DNA from: Candidatus Aenigmatarchaeota archaeon
GTDB taxonomy: Archaea; Aenigmatarchaeota; Aenigmatarchaeia; GW2011-AR5
Direction: 5' to 3'
DNA length: 37,981 nt
Assembly (NCBI GenBank): GCA_016198685.1
Contig: JACQID010000001.1
Location: 1 to 37,981 of the forward strand
Position numbers and translations under genes: made by a program. How positions within the stretch are numbered: the stretch's first letter is position 1; the number at the start of each line of letters is the position of its first letter. This document shows positions 9,677 to 20,694 of this stretch, piece by piece. The notes beneath the pieces were generated by a model. That model was not told the origin of the DNA and searched no databases. It was given only the letters and a program-made list of their open reading frames with translations.

Positions 9677-9771
9677 TTTTACGCACCCCCAGTTTTCAGA
9701 GCCGGGTTATGACCTTGCTCACATTTCTCTTAAACGGGAAGATATTTAAGGATAGAACGTGTCGTAGAATT

Positions 9772-10266
9772 ATGCCAACGCCAGCAGAAAATGCGCGAGC
9801 CTTTGTGACTATATGGAACACGAGATTTCCCCTGTTGAATATGGGGGGTGCTGTTATATACGGAGGCAGCCAGCATGATATTGAAAGGAGGGGTAATAAT
9901 GAATATGTTGCCGGCCTTCTCGGCAGGCTCGAAGAAACGCTCAAAGGTGCCTATGTAACGGCGTCATGCAGTGAATATCTTAGCGAAACGGCCAGAAGAT
10001 CTTTTAGAATAGGAATGCCTCCGTCCATGAGGGTGCCATTGTATGCACTCGACATAGACGAGGCTAATGCGCGATACGGCATTTTTTCCAACGACACGGA
10101 AAATCTCGCTGCTATAGAGACCGAGCTTCTAGAAGTCCAAGAAGAAGCGACCCGGGAACTTGAAATGATGGCACTATTGGGATTCACGACGCCGAACGAT
10201 ATGAAGTATTTGAACCAAAGATGGCGGGCGGAATTTGGGGAAAAATACGGATTGAAAAATAAATAA
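9772..10266 (+). CDS. Hypothetical protein (ORFan)
   Basis: 164-aa ORF with protein-like composition. The ATG at 9772 follows ATTTAAG at 9744-9750, so it is preferred over 9709. Confidence 0.6.
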   Translation: MPTPAENARAFVTIWNTRFPLLNMGGAVIYGGSQHDIERRGNNEYVAGLLGRLEETLKGAYVTASCSEYLSETARRSFRIGMPPSMRVPLYALDIDEANARYGIFSNDTENLAAIETELLEVQEEATRELEMMALLGFTTPNDMKYLNQRWRAEFGEKYGLKNK

Positions 10267-10289: not shown

Positions 10290-10493
10290 TCACTCCATAG
10301 TGCAGCTTTCGCAGAACTTTGGTTGCCCGTCTTTTTCCGTCTGTGCGGCGCAGGATTTACATTGTTCCGTCCTTCGCAACGGACGGCCTTTCTCTTCGCA
10401 TCCGCCGGTTGCGCACGTGTTCAGTCCTGAGGAGTACTGCTTCTCCGTTACTACACCTTTGCATGATCCGCCGCATGCATACATAGTCGCCAT
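10290..10493 (-). CDS. Small Cys-rich putative metal-binding protein (67 aa, 8 Cys)
   Basis: MATMYACGGSCKGV...C...C...CKSC...CESC. A GGTGA SD motif sits at 10502-10498, just upstream of the ATG. Confidence 0.75.
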   Translation of the reverse strand: MATMYACGGSCKGVVTEKQYSSGLNTCATGGCEEKGRPLRRTEQCKSCAAQTEKDGQPKFCESCTME

Positions 10494-10551: not shown

Positions 10552-11925
10552 ATGGAATGGCCAATTTTTTATAAAAGTGAACTAAAGCTTGGCAAGGGCT
10601 CGGCTGCTATATGCACTCTTTGGACAAAAAAGGAGATAATCTGGAAGGCGCTTGACGAAGGCGGCTACAGCGTCTGCGCAAATCTTTATACAATTCAAGG
10701 AATAAACCCGCTCATCAAGAACGTTCTGGCGCGGCCGGAAATAAGGACCATAATACTGTGCGGAGCCGATCTCATGAAGAGCGGGGATGCGATTCTTAAC
10801 CTCATGAAAAATGGAATTGATGCAGAAAGAAAAATAATAGGCTCTGCAGGTATCATAGATTCCAATATTCCATTGGATGCTCTGGAAAAATTCCGGCAAA
10901 ACGTGCATATCATAGATATGCGAGGAAAGGAAAGTGAAATCGCAAGCGAAATTGCAAAATATACGAACCAAGAATCATTTATGGAGCCTCTTTTTATAAC
11001 AGAACTTGACAAGGTTTCATTCCCTCTTTATACTAAAGAGCCGGTATTCAAAATATTTGGAAGATCGCCTGACGAGGCATGGCTCAAGGCATTGGACGTC
11101 GTAACGAAATTTGGGGACGAAAAGCCTACAGAATATAATGCAAAAATGAAGGAAGTGATAGGCATAGTTGCGGTCATCGAGGAAGATATAGAAAGCGTAT
11201 TTCTCTCAAAGGAGGATGCTGAAAACTATTACAAGACGGTCTTCTCGGCGCAGAAGCCAGATGGGGTCGAATATACCTATGGAGAAAGATTATTTTCTTT
11301 CAATGGGCGCAATCAGATAAAACAGGTAATTGAGCGCATTAAAGCAACTCCTTATACAAGAAGGGCTACTGCCGTAACATGGGATATTTCCAAAGACAGC
11401 GAAAGCAACAATCCGCCTTGTCTGACTCAAATAATGTGGAACGTCAAGGACAAGAAGCTCTATCAGACCTGTATCTTTCGTTCCCATGACATATTTGGCG
11501 CATGGCCTCTCAATGCATATGCTATGAGAAGATTGCAAAAATATATGGCACAAGAGCTTGCTATGGAAACAGGACATCTAGTAATACTTTCCAATTCTGC
11601 ACATGTCTATGAGCATGATTGGAGACGTGCAGAAGACATGGTGCACAACAATTATTCAGGCAAAATAACAACGTTTGAGGAAGATGAAAACGGATATTTT
11701 GTACTGAATGTCGATAATGGAGAAATAAGTGTACAGCATTATCTGAAGGATGGGAGGAAGAGCGATTATCTCTTTCGGGGAACCAAGGCTCAGGTTCTCT
11801 ACAGACAGATAACACATGAAAATTTATTTTCAAGATACGACCATGCCGCATACATCGGTCATGAGCTTGCGCGCGCCGAGACGTGCCTTAAAAATGGAAA
11901 ACGTTATGTTCAGGATGAAGCTTGA
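10552..11925 (+). CDS. thyA: Three-domain fusion: MtrA-like N-terminal domain, archaeal-type thymidylate synthase ThyA, DUF4346-like C-terminal domain
   Basis: ThyA catalytic set: TRRA, PPC(290), RSHD(310-313), WPLN(321), HVY(351-353). N-terminus AICTLW...NLYT.QGIN.LIKNVLARPEIR.IILCG...IIGSAG.IDSNIP..A.EKFR is MtrA-like. C-terminus DENGYF...HAAYIGHELARAE.CL..G..YVQD is DUF4346-like. Confidence 0.88.
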   Translation: MEWPIFYKSELKLGKGSAAICTLWTKKEIIWKALDEGGYSVCANLYTIQGINPLIKNVLARPEIRTIILCGADLMKSGDAILNLMKNGIDAERKIIGSAGIIDSNIPLDALEKFRQNVHIIDMRGKESEIASEIAKYTNQESFMEPLFITELDKVSFPLYTKEPVFKIFGRSPDEAWLKALDVVTKFGDEKPTEYNAKMKEVIGIVAVIEEDIESVFLSKEDAENYYKTVFSAQKPDGVEYTYGERLFSFNGRNQIKQVIERIKATPYTRRATAVTWDISKDSESNNPPCLTQIMWNVKDKKLYQTCIFRSHDIFGAWPLNAYAMRRLQKYMAQELAMETGHLVILSNSAHVYEHDWRRAEDMVHNNYSGKITTFEEDENGYFVLNVDNGEISVQHYLKDGRKSDYLFRGTKAQVLYRQITHENLFSRYDHAAYIGHELARAETCLKNGKRYVQDEA

Positions 11926-12057
11926 TTATTCATAAGTCTCTTGATTTTCTCATCGAGGTTTTGAATGTGTTAGTATATGATATCTTCCATATCTTCTTCG
12001 GGAAACGCGCATATTTCTATAGTCGGATTTATCGAAAACAACCTATTAAAATCATAG

Positions 12058-12507
12058 TTAACCCAGGAAATTGCCTGCGATAGCGAACAAAATAAATGTC
12101 GTTACAAAGCTCACGAGCATGAAAGTTATGTATCTGAATCCCATGGTCTTATAGACTGTTGTAACCATCAACGCCGAAACAATATGATAGAAGCCGAACA
12201 TTATGGCTGCTATCTGCAGATAAGGTTGATCATTGAACATGCCTGTCAGGGCGCCGGTCATGCCTGCGAGGGGTATCACGAACATCGCATGGCCCCACTG
12301 CTTGCTTCTCCATATATAATATGCAATCGCAATGAGGATGCCATAAATAGCGCCGTCATTTATGCCTCCGATATAACCTGTTGTTATTGCACAGAAAACA
12401 ACAGTGTCAAAGCCTCTCCTGTAAGCGCCGAGATAAGGGCTGATTCGCCTGAAGAAAAAGTTCAGCGCCAGAGATATAAGGAATATTACCGGCACAGATA
12501 CAGCCAT
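12058..12507 (-). CDS. Membrane protein, ECF-transporter S-component-like
   Basis: 149 aa with 5-6 TM segments. GFDTVVFCAITTGYIGGINDGAIYG resembles the S-component TM2-TM3 G..GP..G motif. Confidence 0.55.
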   Translation of the reverse strand: MAVSVPVIFLISLALNFFFRRISPYLGAYRRGFDTVVFCAITTGYIGGINDGAIYGILIAIAYYIWRSKQWGHAMFVIPLAGMTGALTGMFNDQPYLQIAAIMFGFYHIVSALMVTTVYKTMGFRYITFMLVSFVTTFILFAIAGNFLG

Positions 12508-12584
12508 GCTGCATAATTTGCCGCTAGGGATAAAAACATAGTGTTGATTTTCTCTAATTTAAGTTTTTCTTACAATTAGATACG

Positions 12585-14168
12585 ATGTTTACAGAGGAAC
12601 AGATTCGCACACTTTCCAAGTTCATGACCAATACTGACAAGCCGATATTTGCACTCAAAAACCTTCCTGAAGTCGTCAAGGGCGCGATGTTTTCGAGATA
12701 CAGCAGGACATCCAAGAGCCTGCGCGAGCTTCTTTTGAGTGAATTTTTGCAGAATCAGGATATTTCTACCATGGATCTTGAAGGCATACCTACCAAGAAA
12801 GCCGAGGAATTCTATGATAGGGTTCTTGTCGAATATGGTGACGACTCTGTAGCCGAACTTGGCGGCGCCCATATTGCATGCGAGGGCGTTTCCATGATAG
12901 CAACGAAAATCCTGGAAGATGCGCGCATAGGGCTTTCGCCGCTTGAGAAAAGCACAAGGTACGTATTCTTCAATGAAAAACAAGACGGAAGGTACAAATT
13001 CTGCCGCGAGACCTCGATAATGAGTTCGGAATTCGCCGGTCTTTACGAGGAAACGTGCAATATGCTTTTCGACATGTATTCAGAACTCATAGAGCCGATG
13101 AAGGCTTATATTATTAGCATATTTCCAAAGCCAGCTGATATGACGGATAGGGCTTATGATTTCACGGTGCGCGCAAAAGCCTGCGACGTCCTGCGTGTAT
13201 TTCTTCCTGCATCGACCCTGACGAATATGGGAATATACGGAAACGGGCGGGCATTTGAGTATCTTATAACCAAGATGTACGCATCGCCGATGCAGGAGAT
13301 ACAGCATATAGCAAAAAGCATGCAGGAAGAACTGGGAAAGATAATACCCTCTTTTGTGAAAAGAGCTGATGACGCTTACGGCAGGACAATGCAGGAATAC
13401 ATGAAACAGACAGAAACATCTACGCGTTCGCTTGTTTCTTCACTCGCCAAGAGCAATGGGACAGAAAGCGAAGAAGTCATACTGGCCAGTTTTGATAAGA
13501 ACGCCGAGGAGAAGATAATTGCCGCAATCCTTTATTCGCATTCGCAGATTTCCATGACTGAGTCTCTCCAGCTTTCGCATTCAATGAGCTTGGATAATAA
13601 GGCAAAGGTAATTGAAGAATATACGAGACAAAGAAGCAACCGCCGCCACAGGCCGGGCAGGGCATTTGAGAACGCGTATTACACATTTGATATCTTGGGC
13701 AATTATGGAATATACCGCGATTTGCATCGTCACCGTGCCTTGACCCAGCAAAGACAAATTCTGACAACAGAGCTGGGATACGATATCCCTAAAGAGCTTG
13801 TAGCTGTAGGAGCTGCTGAAAAATATCATGATGCGATGAGAAAAGCGGGCGAAGCATGGAAAAAAATAAGCGCCAAGATGCCATGGCAGGCGCAGTATGT
13901 CGTGCCGTTCGGCTATCGCATCCGATGGTATTTCACGCTGAATGCGCGAGAGCTTTATCATCTTCTGGAGCTACGAACCGTGAAGCAGGGCCATCCTGAT
14001 TACAGACGAATATGCCAGAAGATGTATGTTCTTGCCAAAGCCGCCCATCCTGCAGTTTTCAAGAACATGAGATTTGTTGACATGAATAATTATGAAATGC
14101 AGCGCGATGAGGCGGAAAAACGCATTGATAGGAAGATGGAAGACGTAAGGAAGAAATACGGAAGCTAA
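12585..14168 (+). CDS. thyX: Tandem-domain FAD-dependent thymidylate synthase (ThyX)
   Basis: N domain: YGDDSVAELG, RIGLSPLEKSTRY, DVLRVFLPAST.TN. C domain: RDLHRHR, AQYVVPFG, LNARELYHLLELRT..QGHPDYR. Confidence 0.9.
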   Translation: MFTEEQIRTLSKFMTNTDKPIFALKNLPEVVKGAMFSRYSRTSKSLRELLLSEFLQNQDISTMDLEGIPTKKAEEFYDRVLVEYGDDSVAELGGAHIACEGVSMIATKILEDARIGLSPLEKSTRYVFFNEKQDGRYKFCRETSIMSSEFAGLYEETCNMLFDMYSELIEPMKAYIISIFPKPADMTDRAYDFTVRAKACDVLRVFLPASTLTNMGIYGNGRAFEYLITKMYASPMQEIQHIAKSMQEELGKIIPSFVKRADDAYGRTMQEYMKQTETSTRSLVSSLAKSNGTESEEVILASFDKNAEEKIIAAILYSHSQISMTESLQLSHSMSLDNKAKVIEEYTRQRSNRRHRPGRAFENAYYTFDILGNYGIYRDLHRHRALTQQRQILTTELGYDIPKELVAVGAAEKYHDAMRKAGEAWKKISAKMPWQAQYVVPFGYRIRWYFTLNARELYHLLELRTVKQGHPDYRRICQKMYVLAKAAHPAVFKNMRFVDMNNYEMQRDEAEKRIDRKMEDVRKKYGS

Positions 14169-14491
14169 ATACGTTCGTTCAATACCATGTAGAATGCCTC
14201 TAAAATTTGTCTTTCCCTGCGATTTTTGTTGTATCCTAGGTGTGAAGGTTCTAATGTAATTAGTTGGCCTTGAATTTTAGTCTTAAACGCGAATTCATTC
14301 ATAGGCGGATAGTAACTGAAATATTTCTTTATTTCCTGAGGCTGTCCATCATAGAATACACTGAGGCTTCCCAATGAAAACTGAGGATTTTTTACTTGGC
14401 CGCGAATCGGGGGTAGCTTTCTTATAGCATCGACAAATTCTGCTATTTCTCTTTCATTCCTTATTGCAGTAGCATTGTTGTATTTTACCAT
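14165..14491 (-). CDS. Hypothetical protein (ORFan)
   Basis: 108-aa ORF whose stop overlaps the thyX stop (CTAA). It lies 6 bp downstream of the next minus-strand gene. Confidence 0.65.
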   Translation of the reverse strand: MVKYNNATAIRNEREIAEFVDAIRKLPPIRGQVKNPQFSLGSLSVFYDGQPQEIKKYFSYYPPMNEFAFKTKIQGQLITLEPSHLGYNKNRRERQILEAFYMVLNERI

Positions 14492-14497
14492 AGGCAG

Positions 14498-14797
14498 TCA
14501 CGCAAGCTTTCTCATGATGGATATTATCGAGAACAATCCTTTTTGAAGAAGCCAGACCGACGCTACAAGCGTCAGTTTTGGGTGTGAAAATACGCCTAAA
14601 GCTATCAGGAACATGTAAATGCCTACTGCAAGGTCTATCTTGCTTGCAAAGTCGGTCGGGGAAAAAAGCGCACCCTTGCCTGTGACGTAAGCCGCGTGAT
14701 AGAATATTACCGAGTTGTCGAACCAGCCCCATAACGCATACGTCCCAAGAACGAAGGATGTTGCGATATCAAGGAATCCGAGTATGTAGGCAAGCAT
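14498..14797 (-). CDS. Small 3-TM membrane protein
   Basis: MLAYILGFLDIATSF...KG.LF....FASKIDLAVGIY...LLQKG.FS. The ATG at 14797 is preferred over 14836. Confidence 0.65.
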   Translation of the reverse strand: MLAYILGFLDIATSFVLGTYALWGWFDNSVIFYHAAYVTGKGALFSPTDFASKIDLAVGIYMFLIALGVFSHPKLTLVASVWLLQKGLFSIISIMRKLA

Positions 14798-14891
14798 GTT
14801 TTTATTCCTTGAATGAAAATACTTAAGGTATGACATCTCGTGCAGGCGGCAAATTGTTTATTTTGCCAAAAATACACCTAATTTTCAAAAT

Positions 14892-16103
14892 TTATACTTC
14901 CGGATATATCGGGAATCCGGAACACAGGTCTTGCACGTCCTTGCGGACATTCTCGCCTTTCATGGCGCGGTTCATGAGGGAGCCGACTTCCTGCATGTCT
15001 TTTTCCTTCATGCCGCGCGAAGTAAGCGTAGGCGTTCCGAAGCGTATGCCTGAAGGATCCCACGGCTTTCGCTGGTCATAGGGAACGGTATTCTTGTTGA
15101 CGTAGATGCCGTTCTTTTCAAGCAGCAATTCGGCATCTTTCCCCGTTATTTTCTGTTCAAGGTCTGCGAGTAGCAGATGCGAGTCAGTGCCGCCGGAAAC
15201 GAGCCGCATCTCGACTGCCTTGGCAAGGGCTTTCGCGTTGGTTATTATCTGCCGGGCGTAATCCTTGAACCCCGGCTTCATTGCTTCGGCAAAGCACACG
15301 GCTTTGGCGGCTATGGCGTTTTCATGGGGGCCGCCCTGCAGCCCGGGAAATATCGCTTTGTCTATTTTCTCGGAAAATTCCTGCCTGCAGAGTATCATGG
15401 CGCCGCGCGGGCCTCGAAGAGTTTTGTGCGTTGTCGTCATTACAATGTCGGCATACGGAACCGGTGACGGATAAGCCCCACCGGCAACAAGTCCTGCAAA
15501 ATGTGACATGTCTACAAACAGCTTAGCACCGACAGAATCGGCAATCTCGCGGAACCTTCTGAAATCAATCACGCGGGTATATGCGGTATAGCCGCAGAGA
15601 ATCATTTTAGGATTGTGCTGCTTTGCAAGTGATTCTATTTCATCATAATCGAGAAGCTCATTGTCCTTGCGCACGCGGTATGGCACGGCGTTATAGTCTG
15701 TTCCTGAAAAGTTGATTTTTAGGCCGTGAGTTATATGCCCGCCGTGTGACAGTTCGAGTCCCATGAATGCATCGCCCTTGTTAAGAAGTGCCCGGAATAC
15801 AGCTTGGTTTGCAGGCGAGCCTGAATAAGGCTGGACGTTCACGTGTTCTGCTCCAAAGAGCTTCTTTGCCCTTTCAATAGCAAGGTTTTCTATCTCGTCA
15901 ATAACTTCATTTCCGCCGTAATATCTCTTTCCAGGATAGCCTTCTGAATACTTGTTATGCGGAAAAGAAGAGAGTGCTTCGAGGACTGCAAGCGACGGTA
16001 TATTCTCTGAAGGTATCAGTTCAAGACCGTTTCTCTGGCGTTCCAGCTCCTTCATGACAAGGGCAAAAACGTCAAAATCCCCTTCTTTGAGCTTTGCAAG
16101 CAT
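14892..16103 (-). CDS. glyA: Serine hydroxymethyltransferase (bacterial-type motifs)
   Basis: Motifs LELIPSEN, YSEGYPGKRYYGG, NVQPYSGSPAN, HGGHITHG, DMSHFAGLV, PLP-Lys TTTHKTLRGPRG and PSGIRFGTP. Confidence 0.98.
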   Translation of the reverse strand: MLAKLKEGDFDVFALVMKELERQRNGLELIPSENIPSLAVLEALSSFPHNKYSEGYPGKRYYGGNEVIDEIENLAIERAKKLFGAEHVNVQPYSGSPANQAVFRALLNKGDAFMGLELSHGGHITHGLKINFSGTDYNAVPYRVRKDNELLDYDEIESLAKQHNPKMILCGYTAYTRVIDFRRFREIADSVGAKLFVDMSHFAGLVAGGAYPSPVPYADIVMTTTHKTLRGPRGAMILCRQEFSEKIDKAIFPGLQGGPHENAIAAKAVCFAEAMKPGFKDYARQIITNAKALAKAVEMRLVSGGTDSHLLLADLEQKITGKDAELLLEKNGIYVNKNTVPYDQRKPWDPSGIRFGTPTLTSRGMKEKDMQEVGSLMNRAMKGENVRKDVQDLCSGFPIYPEV

Positions 16104-16154: not shown

Positions 16155-16802
16155 ATGAAACTGCCTGACATCGACAAGCGTATGGTGCATCCAATTTTAG
16201 CTCTTGCCGCAATTACAATTATTCTGCTGATTCCCCTGCCCCAGAAAGAACTGGTGGCATACACGGAAAATGCCCCTTACGAAGCTATCATAATCAGCGA
16301 GAATCCGCCAGGCAGCAGCACGAACAAAGTTTGCTTGACCGTTCTTCAGCCTTCAAGCCAAAAAGCTTGCACCAGGGATAATATATCTTTTAGCATTTCA
16401 ACCGTAGAATGCAGCAACATTTCCGCATCAGTGGCCACGTACAATATCCACAATCTTGCTACAAAAAGAGGAGAGTTTAACATTGTTGTAGGTTTTGATC
16501 TGAATGATGGCAAAAAATCCGAAAGATCTTATGACCGTACTATAGATGGAAAAACTACAGAGACAATCGCATTTTCGATAAGCAATCCAGAAACCAAGGG
16601 ATGCTACATAAGGGTGAATAATGCCGTTTCCGAGCTTGAATGCAAGGATGCCGTGAAATATACGGCGGATACGAACTGTTACGGCGGCGACAATCTTCCT
16701 AAATTAGAGGAAGAAAGAGCGACGTTATACAAGGAAATTGAAAGACAGAAGTTCGTGACTGTGTATAAGCCTCTTATTCAGACCCTTTTAGGATATCGCT
16801 AA
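16155..16802 (+). CDS. Membrane-anchored extracytoplasmic hypothetical protein
   Basis: N-terminal TM segment (ILALAAITIILLIPLP) followed by a Cys-containing, beta-rich region with NIS sequons. Confidence 0.7.
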   Translation: MKLPDIDKRMVHPILALAAITIILLIPLPQKELVAYTENAPYEAIIISENPPGSSTNKVCLTVLQPSSQKACTRDNISFSISTVECSNISASVATYNIHNLATKRGEFNIVVGFDLNDGKKSERSYDRTIDGKTTETIAFSISNPETKGCYIRVNNAVSELECKDAVKYTADTNCYGGDNLPKLEEERATLYKEIERQKFVTVYKPLIQTLLGYR

Positions 16803-19138: not shown

Positions 19139-20278
19139 ATGCACGACATGATAGGCGTTCATTATTCTGAGATAGCTCTCAAAGGCCAGAATAGAGGATA
19201 CTTTGAGAAGAGCCTCAGGCAGAACGTAAGGCGCATGCTGAAAGGCGAGGAGTGCAGTATTGAGAGCGTTCATGACAGGATACTTATACGGCTCTTGCCG
19301 GGCGCAAACGAAAAAAGCATCGGGGAGAAACTGCAGTGCGTTTTCGGAATATCGCATTTTTACCCCGCTTTTTCATGCGGAAAAAGCATCGAAGAGATAG
19401 GCCTAAAGGCGCGGGAAATCTTTCAGCAGGTGCCCAAAGACAAGACATTCAAAGTCAAATCTTCGCGTGCGGACAAGAAATTCCCGATTGATTCGCAGGA
19501 GCTAAACAGGCGCTTAGGCGAAATATTCTACAATGACGGCTACACTGTCGACGTGAAAAAGCCTGACGTGACGCTGCATGTCGATATAATCAAGGATTTC
19601 GCTTTGGTGTATACGGAAAAGACGGCATGTTACGGCGGCATGCCCGTAGGCACGTCCGGCAAAGTTGTCGTGCTTTTTTCGGGCGGTATAGATTCGCCTG
19701 TCGCATCATGGTACGCCATGAAAAGGGGCTGCAGGCCCGTATATGTGCATTTCCATGCAATGCGCAGCAATGCAGATGCCGCGAAGAGCAAGATAGGGAG
19801 GCTTGTGCAAAGCCTTTGCAGATATTCTGGCAGAGCAAAGCTCTATCTTGTGCCTTATGATACCTTCCAGGTCAGTTGCGCTTCGGATTATGAGCTTGTA
19901 GTATTCAGGCGGTTCATTAACAGAGTGGCTGAAAAAATAGCTGCACTCGAAGGCGCAAAAGTCCTGGTCACCGGCGAAAGCATAGCACAAGTTGCATCGC
20001 AGACGCTCGATAATATGGCTGCAATCGAAGAGGCTGTAAAGATTCCCATAATAAGGCCCTTGGCGGGAATGAACAAGGATGAAATAATAGCAAAAGCCGA
20101 GGAAATAGGAACATACGAACTTTCGCTTGGAGATTACAAGGACTGCTGCTCCATTGTATCAAGGCATCCAAGAACCAAGGCAAACTTGGAAAAGATAAAG
20201 GCCGACGAGGAGAAGATGAATATCGAAAAACTTGCGGAAGAGACCTTGGCGCAGGCGGAGATGTATATTTTTGATTAG
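19139..20278 (+). CDS. thiI: tRNA 4-thiouridine synthase ThiI (THUMP + PP-loop, no rhodanese domain)
   Basis: HYSEIALKGQNRGYFE, THUMP (TFKVKSSRADKKF), GGMPVGTSGK, PP-loop SGGIDSPVA, TGESIAQVASQT, RPL and DCC. TATAAAA at 19111-19117 favours ATG 19139 over 19121. Confidence 0.95.
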   Translation: MHDMIGVHYSEIALKGQNRGYFEKSLRQNVRRMLKGEECSIESVHDRILIRLLPGANEKSIGEKLQCVFGISHFYPAFSCGKSIEEIGLKAREIFQQVPKDKTFKVKSSRADKKFPIDSQELNRRLGEIFYNDGYTVDVKKPDVTLHVDIIKDFALVYTEKTACYGGMPVGTSGKVVVLFSGGIDSPVASWYAMKRGCRPVYVHFHAMRSNADAAKSKIGRLVQSLCRYSGRAKLYLVPYDTFQVSCASDYELVVFRRFINRVAEKIAALEGAKVLVTGESIAQVASQTLDNMAAIEEAVKIPIIRPLAGMNKDEIIAKAEEIGTYELSLGDYKDCCSIVSRHPRTKANLEKIKADEEKMNIEKLAEETLAQAEMYIFD

Positions 20279-20694
20279 CCAAACCAGAGCTTGATTTCCT
20301 TTTCCGCTTCTTCTTTTGTCGCAGAGGCGTGAACAAGATTTTTCATGATCCTGTCGTCGTCCGCTAGCTTCATGTCGCCGAACTCGTTGCGGATCGTACC
20401 CTTCTCGGCTTTCATAGGGTCTGTTGAGCCCGTCACTTTTCTTGCAGTTGCCACGGCGTTATTGCCTTCAAATATGATGGCTACTATTTTGCCTGAAGAC
20501 ATGAATTTCTCCAATGAAGGATAGAAACCTTTCTGAACATGCGCAGAATAATGCTGTTTCAATGTTGCAGCGGTTGCGACTAGCTCTTCTCTTCTTATCA
20601 TTCTGAGGCCAGCTTTCTCGTATTTCTGGACAATATCATTTTCAAGCCCCTTTGCCACCGCATCAGGCTTTAATATAATCAGCGTTTTTTCCAT
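20275..20694 (-). CDS. ndk: Nucleoside diphosphate kinase
   Basis: EKTLIILKPDAV, HY..H..KGFY..L..FMSSG, G.TDP..A..GTIR..FG, phospho-His NLVHAS and EIKLWF. Confidence 0.96.
   Translation of the reverse strand: MEKTLIILKPDAVAKGLENDIVQKYEKAGLRMIRREELVATAATLKQHYSAHVQKGFYPSLEKFMSSGKIVAIIFEGNNAVATARKVTGSTDPMKAEKGTIRNEFGDMKLADDDRIMKNLVHASATKEEAEKEIKLWFG

Follow-up and report, generated by a model that had tools for sequence, protein, structure and literature searches.

Two thymidylate synthase modules, a three-domain ThyA fusion and a doubled ThyX beside GlyA, in a very small Aenigmatarchaeota genome

Locus and gene content

The window (the whole stretch of 37,981 nucleotides that was analyzed) is contig C4 of a Candidatus Aenigmatarchaeota archaeon genome (GenBank assembly GCA_016198685.1, contig JACQID010000001.1, forward strand). 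The subject of this study is an island of six genes at 10552-16103, which encodes two unrelated thymidylate synthases (TS), a three-domain ThyA fusion and a doubled ThyX, together with serine hydroxymethyltransferase (SHMT; GlyA), a polytopic membrane protein and two small proteins. An earlier note, made from the sequence by a model, had listed the ThyA fusion, a membrane gene, a tandem ThyX, two small genes and GlyA, with Ndk 4 kb further on, and all of these were confirmed, the six island genes each at the position it had assigned. The features, with lengths in amino acids (aa), are:

10552..11925, + strand: three-domain ThyA fusion, 457 aa (Pfam and NCBIfam matches)
12058..12507, - strand: polytopic membrane protein, 149 aa (open reading frame (ORF) with an S-component-like model; no Pfam or NCBIfam match)
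12585..14168, + strand: doubled ThyX, 527 aa (two Thy1 stretches in a single frame)
14165..14491, - strand: 108-aa protein of no family (ORF; last gene of the glyA transcription unit)
14498..14836, - strand: small membrane protein of ~99-112 aa, of no family (ORF between glyA and the 108-aa gene)
14892..16103, - strand: GlyA (SHMT) of the high-scoring class (PF00464, 513.8 bits; NF000586, 563 bits)
20275..20694, - strand: Ndk, nucleoside diphosphate kinase (ORF; 4.2 kb beyond 16103)

The window's own genome (G000; genus g1, family f1) was 0.93 Mb in 8 contigs and 93.7% complete. Its closest protein relatives, in homologue searches with the ThyA fusion and ThyX, were Aenigmarchaeota or other DPANN archaea, and window DNA was contained in groundwater metagenomes. 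The phylum was surveyed first in a sample of 201 genomes and then in all 371 genomes, with counts for all 371 taken at E <= 1e-25. Completeness of the metagenome-assembled genomes (MAGs) across the phylum was 63-98%, which inflates apparent gene absences, and related genomes are not independent samples; co-occurrence counts are descriptive only.

The island is not one operon and its linkage is loose, since there were four transcription units of alternating strand (thyA by itself, the membrane gene, thyX, and glyA plus both small genes) and unrelated genes were inserted in relatives. The membrane gene and thyX were divergent with 77 bp between them, the 108-aa gene overlapped the thyX stop by 4 bp, and the fusion lay 0.66 kb from thyX with the membrane gene between. 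Nor is the island an assembly artefact, because identical contigs from a further run of the same study tiled the region and the gene order recurred on other metagenome contigs. A metagenome scan with the 149-aa membrane protein returned five loci; the window gene order was found again on contigs of 116 kb and 11.7 kb and partly on a 6.5-kb contig, and the island was conserved in metagenome contigs L055, L056 and L058. On L055 (116 kb) the order was Ndk, ThiI, aIF5B, glyA, small membrane gene, 108-aa gene, thyX, 149-aa gene, thyA fusion, S6e, aIF2-gamma, the same as in the window, with protein identities to the window of 82% (ThyA fusion), 93%, 92% (ThyX) and 96% (GlyA); a 354-aa protein of no known function was inserted between the membrane gene and thyA. 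L058 was more distant (84%, 80%, 88% and 89%) and kept the same core. There, a 1051-aa protein (L058:1959-5114) that combines Laminin_G_3 (concanavalin-like lectin) domains with bacterial Ig-like ones was inserted between glyA and the small membrane gene.

Three-domain ThyA fusion

The fusion consisted of an MtrA-like Rossmann-type domain (aa 2-140; PF04208, 59.4 bits, cut-off 25), a ThyA core (aa ~165-372; PF00303 matched at 235-372, 73.8 bits, cut-off 24.3) and a PterinBD-DUF4346 domain (aa 377-455; 81 bits). The core was aligned to the S. aureus TS 4dq1, in which R270/R271 corresponded to the R-R pair, C290 to the P-P-C nucleophile, R310/S311/D313 to Arg-Ser-x-Asp, N321 to the Asn, and H351 with Y353 to His-x-Tyr. 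For the N-terminal half of the core (aa 165-235), where classical ThyA has its folate-activating Glu and folate-stacking Trp residues, no sequence alignment to classical ThyA was obtained. Full-length homologues of the fusion numbered 194, and across 40 of these, with identity down to 40%, the catalytic and deoxyuridine monophosphate (dUMP)-binding motif residues were invariant. Uracil is specified by the Asn in the ThyA enzymes of E. coli and L. casei (it is Asp in the hydroxymethylases of deoxycytidine monophosphate (dCMP)), and the His and Tyr hold the 3'-OH of the deoxyribose. The invariance of these residues argues for dUMP as the substrate of the fusion.

The AlphaFold model of the whole fusion had a pLDDT of 91.4 and a pTM of 0.65. 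In a whole-chain Foldseek search its best PDB folds were thymidylate synthases; the accessory domains were not informed by this search. Alignments to bifunctional DHFR-TS (DHFR, dihydrofolate reductase) were long but superposed poorly over the whole chain (root-mean-square deviation ~22 A). Normalized by target length, the best structural match was a phage dCMP hydroxylase with a short TS fold (PDB 9iqu/9iqc; TM 0.77), a caution that a short TS fold may serve a different chemistry.

In MtrA, His84 ligates cobalt and G-A-I-P-F/Y-x-E-N is a conserved segment (PMC4915002). When the MtrA-like domain was aligned to the MtrA homologue 5laa, His84 fell in a gap of the query and the G-A-I-P-F/Y-x-E-N segment was shortened, with P-Y deleted. 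Cobamide binding in the known mode is thus unlikely on this alignment, and the domain was rejected as an unlikely methyl carrier on cobamide, the His ligand being missing. The DUF4346 domain also ends dihydropteroate-synthase-like proteins (TIGR00284). Since dihydropteroate synthase and ThyA both release dihydropterins, the MtrA-like/DUF4346 module might re-reduce or otherwise handle the pterin, which is offered as a lead only.

Doubled ThyX

PF02511 (Thy1) matched ThyX with 149.2 bits in two stretches, and in the genome search the two scored 81.9 and 66.1 bits, both above the cut-off. Against TIGR02170 the whole protein reached 69.8 bits, below the cut-off of 87.9. With a 20-sequence profile, the C-terminal half could be aligned to the H. 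pylori and T. maritima ThyX proteins, the RHR motifs coinciding. At least 7997 homologues of the doubled ThyX were found. Residues invariant in the family were R382-H383-R384, Q388, Q391, N453, R455 and R464, together with F-S-R-Y-S-R in the N-terminal half. Of the classical RHR(x7)S motif the RHR was present and the Ser seven residues on was absent, the sequence reading RHR-x-L-T-Q-x-R-Q instead. Such an altered and split motif would be expected if the two halves form a pseudo-dimer, and two Thy1 domains per chain suggest a dimer of pseudo-dimers. The doubling was taken from the hidden Markov model (HMM) matches: a BLASTP comparison of the two halves with each other gave no match, and a plain phmmer search of ThyX against the PDB found no relative.

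SHMT and the two small genes

The GlyA match to PF00464 (513.8 bits) spanned model positions 1-398 of 399, and the NF000586 score of 563 bits compared with a cut-off of 335. Its ratio of nonsynonymous to synonymous substitution rates (dN/dS) was 0.06 against L055 and 0.05 against L058. SHMTs of the phylum sample fell into two PF00464 score classes, ~500-570 and ~180-260 bits; the low-scoring class, which may be a methanopterin-type SHMT, adjoined single-domain ThyX or split archaeal ThyA modules (G117, G041, G067, G159).

Neither of the two small genes matched a Pfam or NCBIfam family, and Pfam even at E <= 5 gave nothing usable. The small membrane protein (14498-14836) was 80-89% identical in L055/L058 with a dN/dS of 0.10, and its Atlas neighbors were DPANN clusters without names. 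The 108-aa protein was 62% identical in L055 (dN/dS 0.40) and had no match in L058, where a 319-aa ORF filled that stretch.

The 149-aa membrane protein

No Pfam or NCBIfam family matched the membrane protein, including the S-component families PF12822 and PF07155, even at E <= 5. Its Atlas link to S-component clusters was only 0.75, and ~10 representatives, all of ~147 aa, were found among 1.8 billion clustered proteins. The AlphaFold model had a pLDDT of 89.7 and a pTM of 0.86. The six best PDB matches in Foldseek were all S-components of energy-coupling factor (ECF) transporters (FolT three times, RibU, PanT and one without a name; TM 0.43-0.59, probability 0.72-0.99, E 0.39-1.3), the best being the folate-specific FolT 7nnt_C (probability 0.99, TM 0.59, E 0.39). 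The dN/dS was 0.05-0.14.

A family profile matched 11 of the 201 sampled genomes. A member lay between classical thyA and folA in G173, 1.7 kb from folA and 2.8 kb from glyA in G053, and 0.9 kb from glyA in G040; in G051 a weak match lay between glyA and thyX. Members of the family thus turn up in the folate clusters of other genera irrespective of the synthase type, which is a new observation. The S-component-like character assigned by the earlier note agrees both with the best PDB matches of the model and with the position of the family in folate clusters elsewhere. From the FolT-like model and the folate-cluster gene context, the protein is most likely a candidate solitary S-component-like importer of folate or a pterin, which is the most economical reading. 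EcfT (PF02361) had no match in the 93.7%-complete genome (EcfA was not searched for), so the protein would work alone or with another partner.

Distribution in the phylum

Across the 371 genomes, fusion-type ThyA was present in 102 and doubled ThyX in 69, and both in 10 (19 expected if independent), in line with the earlier note that the two are usually alternatives; 92 genomes had the fusion without doubled ThyX and 59 the reverse. The double carriers were G000 and G289 (g1), G042, G198, G311 and G312 (g50), G034 and G110 (g45), G351 and G359. Fusion and ThyX lay on different contigs in G034, G042 and G198, and genus g1 was the only one, within the genomes searched, to have both in one island. 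In G289 both genes were 65-68% identical to those of G000, its fusion (65%) being the best match in the phylum. ThyX was present in 8 of 20 genomes whose fusions were >=49% identical to that of G000, and in 2 of 82 with more distant fusions. Within family f1 outside g1, the fusion was found in 13 genomes, doubled ThyX in 6 and both in none. Relatives with one gene only, which the earlier note had regarded as the mark of recent redundant transfer, were therefore largely the rule in f1 outside g1, but the double state was kept in g1, g50 and g45.

Three modules were distinguished, with counts from the 201-genome sample. In module a, a doubled (in some genomes single) ThyX stood beside glyA, and SHMT was present in 61 of 65 ThyX genomes, usually directly adjacent. 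Module b carried canonical DHFR (>160 bits; 15 of 201 genomes), mostly near glyA and in 5 cases beside a bacterial-type ThyA. Module c comprised archaeal ThyA with MtrA-like and DUF4346 domains, either fused or as a two-domain gene beside a stand-alone ThyA (G098, G130, G060, G030); SHMT was present in only 25 of its 77 genomes (absent from 52) and DHFR in almost none. G000 combines modules a and c.

A classical bacterial-type glyA-thyA-folA cluster was seen in some genomes of the phylum (G105:C2:482070-485342, G173:C11:5881-10532, G139:C44:5417-10144, G164:C3:1809-4641). In addition to its cluster, G105 carried a three-domain ThyA 100 kb away, and so had two ThyA-type enzymes.

Inheritance and selection

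Proteins of the window were compared by tblastn with the corresponding stretches of relatives. thyX adjoined glyA in G015, G018, G199 and G200, with only aIF5B between them in G085; all five shared the window neighborhood of EF-1alpha, S10, aIF5B and Ndk, and none of the five stretches contained the ThyA fusion, the 149-aa gene or the two small genes. thyX and glyA were also adjacent in G042. Trees were built by quick maximum likelihood (LG+G4, SH-aLRT support); they were unrooted, with no species-tree comparison. In the ThyX tree G000 was sister to G085 (support 91) among other f1 sequences, and a single f1 clade was possible. In the fusion tree the f1 fusions of G000, G105 and G125 stood in three separate, well-supported places, that of G000 being sister to a clade of f20 and f22 sequences.

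The ThyX dN/dS was 0.10 (L055) and 0.05 (L058). For the ThyA fusion dN was 0.10 and dS was saturated; between 10552-11925 and L055:11852-13219 the synonymous divergence pS was 0.78, against 0.21-0.50 for neighboring genes. This saturation of the fusion while its neighbors were not saturated suggests allele exchange or replacement at the fusion locus within the genus. Both synthase genes are under purifying selection; ThyA kept its catalytic residues, and ThyX its RHR and the other invariant motifs.

On the synteny and trees, thyX-glyA reads as vertically inherited and the fusion as its mobile, patchy partner. The gene was already present in the g1 ancestor, since no fusion in the phylum is closer to that of G000 than the one in G289 (65% identity), and its alleles may since have been exchanged. 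The coexistence of the two synthases is stable in three genera and is not a fleeting transfer intermediate.

Folate and nucleotide context

No match to DHFR (FolA), the FolD C-terminal domain or the FolP pterin-binding domain was found in G000, which is 93.7% complete; the corynebacterial control genome was positive in the FolA search. There was no real formate-tetrahydrofolate ligase in the genome, and a formyltransferase-like match was weak only. The dCMP deaminase, a dUTPase-like gene and thymidylate kinase (Tmk) were present. Because DHFR, FolD and FolP had no match, the organism appears to be a folate auxotroph: it would be unable to make folate, and would have few uses for it beyond the island. 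With SHMT and ThyX together, the folate cycle closes without DHFR; that the ThyX route dispenses with DHFR, as the earlier note had it, suits a genome that has none. GlyA, which the note had placed as the feeder of methylene-tetrahydrofolate, is the natural one-carbon (C1) source, and the adjacency of thyX and glyA is widely conserved. Weak DHFR-like matches (35-44 bits, in frames of ~175-180 aa) were seen in f1 relatives with ThyX only (G015:C4:83875-84357, G200:C10:10257-10646, G199:C5:4191-4514), and none in G000.

Flanking features

Ndk belongs to a conserved neighborhood of aIF5B, ThiI, Ndk, S10 and EF-1alpha, seen also in G085 and L055, and is not specific to the island. Base composition showed no sharp boundary around the island, and no tRNA was found within the window. 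Positions 10936-12036 were thinly covered by other studies' runs at >=85% likeness, a coverage gap and not evidence of absence. Just upstream of thyA was a 67-aa Cys-rich ORF (10290-10493, - strand; 62% identity over 65 residues in L055). For a 185-aa ORF (9709-10266) tblastn found no counterpart in L055, and other runs' contigs had 173 other letters in place of 657 bases here. At 16155-16802 was a fast-evolving 215-aa protein, probably a surface protein, with a hydrophobic N-terminal segment and no family match (59-66% identity in L055/L058; dN/dS 0.27 where measurable).

Interpretation

We consider it probable that this archaeon, a folate auxotroph with a very small genome, has two complete and alternative thymidylate modules brought together in the island. 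In the first module, which would be ancestral in the family, SHMT would make methylene-tetrahydrofolate from serine, and the doubled ThyX with reduced flavin would methylate dUMP with it and return tetrahydrofolate. The folate that the cell cannot make would most likely be imported by the FolT-like 149-aa protein. In the second, the three-domain ThyA would methylate dUMP too; elsewhere it would act as a self-standing synthase, usually without DHFR and SHMT. The dUMP would come from the dCMP deaminase, and thymidine monophosphate (dTMP) would pass onward via Tmk and Ndk. Judging from the genes and their residues, both enzymes would make dTMP and would be kept because they suit different conditions (of reductant, cofactor form or rate), the product being the same, and no sign of new chemistry was seen.

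Several points weigh against this reading. With a classical ThyA, tetrahydrofolate would be lost as dihydrofolate, for which no route back is known, and since the 93.7%-complete genome has no DHFR, the fusion cannot work exactly as a textbook ThyA does unless there is a reductase that escaped detection. SHMT is missing from most genomes that have this archaeal form of ThyA, and the C1 source of the fusion may therefore not be the neighboring GlyA. Against the methanogen-type model TIGR03283, the core matched positions 6-199 of 201 with 171.3 bits, just under the cut-off of 174.55. The FolT-like assignment of the membrane protein draws only on weak Foldseek E-values (>=0.39) and on gene context. 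Stable coexistence in three genera, moreover, suggests a functional difference that this reading leaves unspecified.

A possible, though unlikely, alternative is a split of cofactors, in which ThyX, SHMT and the importer would run on scavenged folate, and the fusion either on another C1 carrier (methanopterin-like, or a formaldehyde-derived methylene-pterin) or by recycling its own dihydropterin via the MtrA-like/DUF4346 module, much as the DHFR domain does in DHFR-TS fusions, both enzymes making dTMP from separate cofactor pools. FolA was absent from G000 and from every other double carrier, canonical DHFR was confined to 15 of 201 genomes, where it was part of a glyA cluster or adjoined one and in five stood next to a different, bacterial-type ThyA, and 52 of 77 archaeal-ThyA genomes were without SHMT. 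The MtrA-like/DUF4346 module was fused to or adjoined ThyA in many genomes, a Rosetta-stone link, and DUF4346 recurs in TIGR00284 proteins, another class of enzymes with a dihydropterin product. Where split-form ThyA stood beside glyA (G067, G159), that glyA was of the low-scoring class, and ThyX accompanied the closer fusions (8/20) more often than the distant ones (2/82). All of this is correlative, however: the related genomes are not independent, and MAG incompleteness (63-98%) inflates the absences. The MtrA-like domain, furthermore, has no recognized redox or nucleotide motif and lacks the cobamide ligand, and the ThyA keeps the pterin-ring-binding Asp of classical enzymes, which suits folate as well as other pterins. 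As a possibility, the different cofactor suggested in the earlier note has gained some support (DHFR absent, the fusion independent of SHMT elsewhere, the double state in three genera, and 8/20 against 2/82).

More speculatively, and with low probability, the two enzymes would not be redundant and the fusion could be a self-sufficient synthase needing neither DHFR nor SHMT, its MtrA-like and DUF4346 domains either re-reducing the dihydropterin or handling a C1 carrier other than folate, with ThyX, SHMT and the importer as a closed cycle on scavenged folate, so that double carriers could switch between the cofactor supplies of their hosts. If true, such a fusion would be a third mechanistic solution to thymidylate synthesis.

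It is improbable that the fusion is a laterally acquired duplicate caught before the loss of one gene and of no selective value. The f1 relatives carry one gene or the other, the fusion phylogeny is scattered across families, the saturated fusion dS against L055, beside unsaturated neighbors, suggests allele exchange, and in the published view double carriers are transfer intermediates (PMC2826268). Yet both genes persist in g1 (G000, G289, L055, L058) at 65-92% protein identity and with low dN/dS, and again in four g50 and two g45 genomes; nor would a useless 1.4-kb gene be expected to last in a streamlined 0.93-Mb genome. Of the division of labor proposed in the earlier note, what stands is that the two coexist in three genera under purifying selection, so that recent redundancy is not the whole story; its novel form found little support.

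The earlier note had further proposed that only one enzyme may make dTMP. That the second makes a modified pyrimidine nucleotide (with a hydroxymethyl or other C5 group), acts on dCMP or UMP, or methylates uridine in RNA is very improbable: ThyA- and ThyX-fold enzymes with other substrates are known (such as PolB, a UMP C5-methylase; PMC5003785), the phage dCMP hydroxylase 9iqu was among the best structural matches (TM 0.77) and the accessory domains have no assigned roles, but the uracil-specifying Asn and the deoxyribose-holding His and Tyr are invariant, each of the two types serves as the sole thymidylate synthase of many related genomes, no DNA-modification gene, such as a glycosyltransferase or a kinase, was found with the island, and the 9iqu match may merely reflect two short TS folds.

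With its three interchangeable thymidylate modules, this phylum of very small archaea is a natural test bed for folate-cycle minimization. The three-domain ThyA occurs in genomes without a known dihydrofolate reductase, and genus g1 offers a ThyX control in one background. The candidate folate-importer family is relevant to the question of which compounds these symbionts, unable to make folate, obtain from their hosts.

Comparison with known systems

ThyA and ThyX are mostly mutually exclusive, are often transferred, and coexist in some species (PMC2826268; PMC3352284); both are carried by Mycobacterium tuberculosis, corynebacteria and about 20 bacterial species (Stern et al. 2010; PMC2826268; PMC3352284). 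Carrying ThyA and ThyX together is thus already known from mycobacteria and other bacteria, and the headline observation is not new. In the literature searched, no paper was found that describes the MtrA-like, ThyA and DUF4346 architecture, mentions DUF4346, treats ThyX, ThyA and DPANN together, or pairs CT632 with ThyX, and a search for MtrA with thymidylate synthase gave nothing relevant.

The fusion core is like the archaeal short TS (TIGR03283) in its match to the model (positions 6-199 of 201) and in its classical active-site residues; it differs in scoring 3 bits under the equivalog cut-off and in sitting between MtrA-like and DUF4346 domains. The bifunctional DHFR-TS of protozoa and plants likewise has an N-terminal alpha/beta domain fused to TS and occurs where the pterin product has to be recycled, but the N-terminal domain here is MtrA-like and not DHFR, and a reductase activity would be hypothetical. 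The doubled ThyX has the Thy1 fold of the T. maritima (TM0449) and H. pylori enzymes twice, and its C-terminal half keeps the RHR and downstream Asn/Arg motifs; unlike these, it is a single chain of two diverged halves, with the motifs split between them and a TIGR02170 score below the cut-off. The membrane protein resembles the ECF S-components (FolT; 7nnt_C, 5jsz_C, 5d0y_A) in size (149 against 155-169 aa), the all-helical membrane fold of its model and position in folate clusters, and differs in having no detectable sequence similarity to them, weak Foldseek E-values and no EcfT in the genome.

With the bacterial double carriers, this archaeon shares the presence of the same two unrelated synthases in one genome, kept over evolutionary time. 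Here, however, they are found in a 0.93-Mb genome without FolA (the corynebacterial control has FolA), the ThyA is three-domain and the ThyX doubled, and an interval of 0.66 kb that contains the gene of a putative folate importer separates thyA from thyX.

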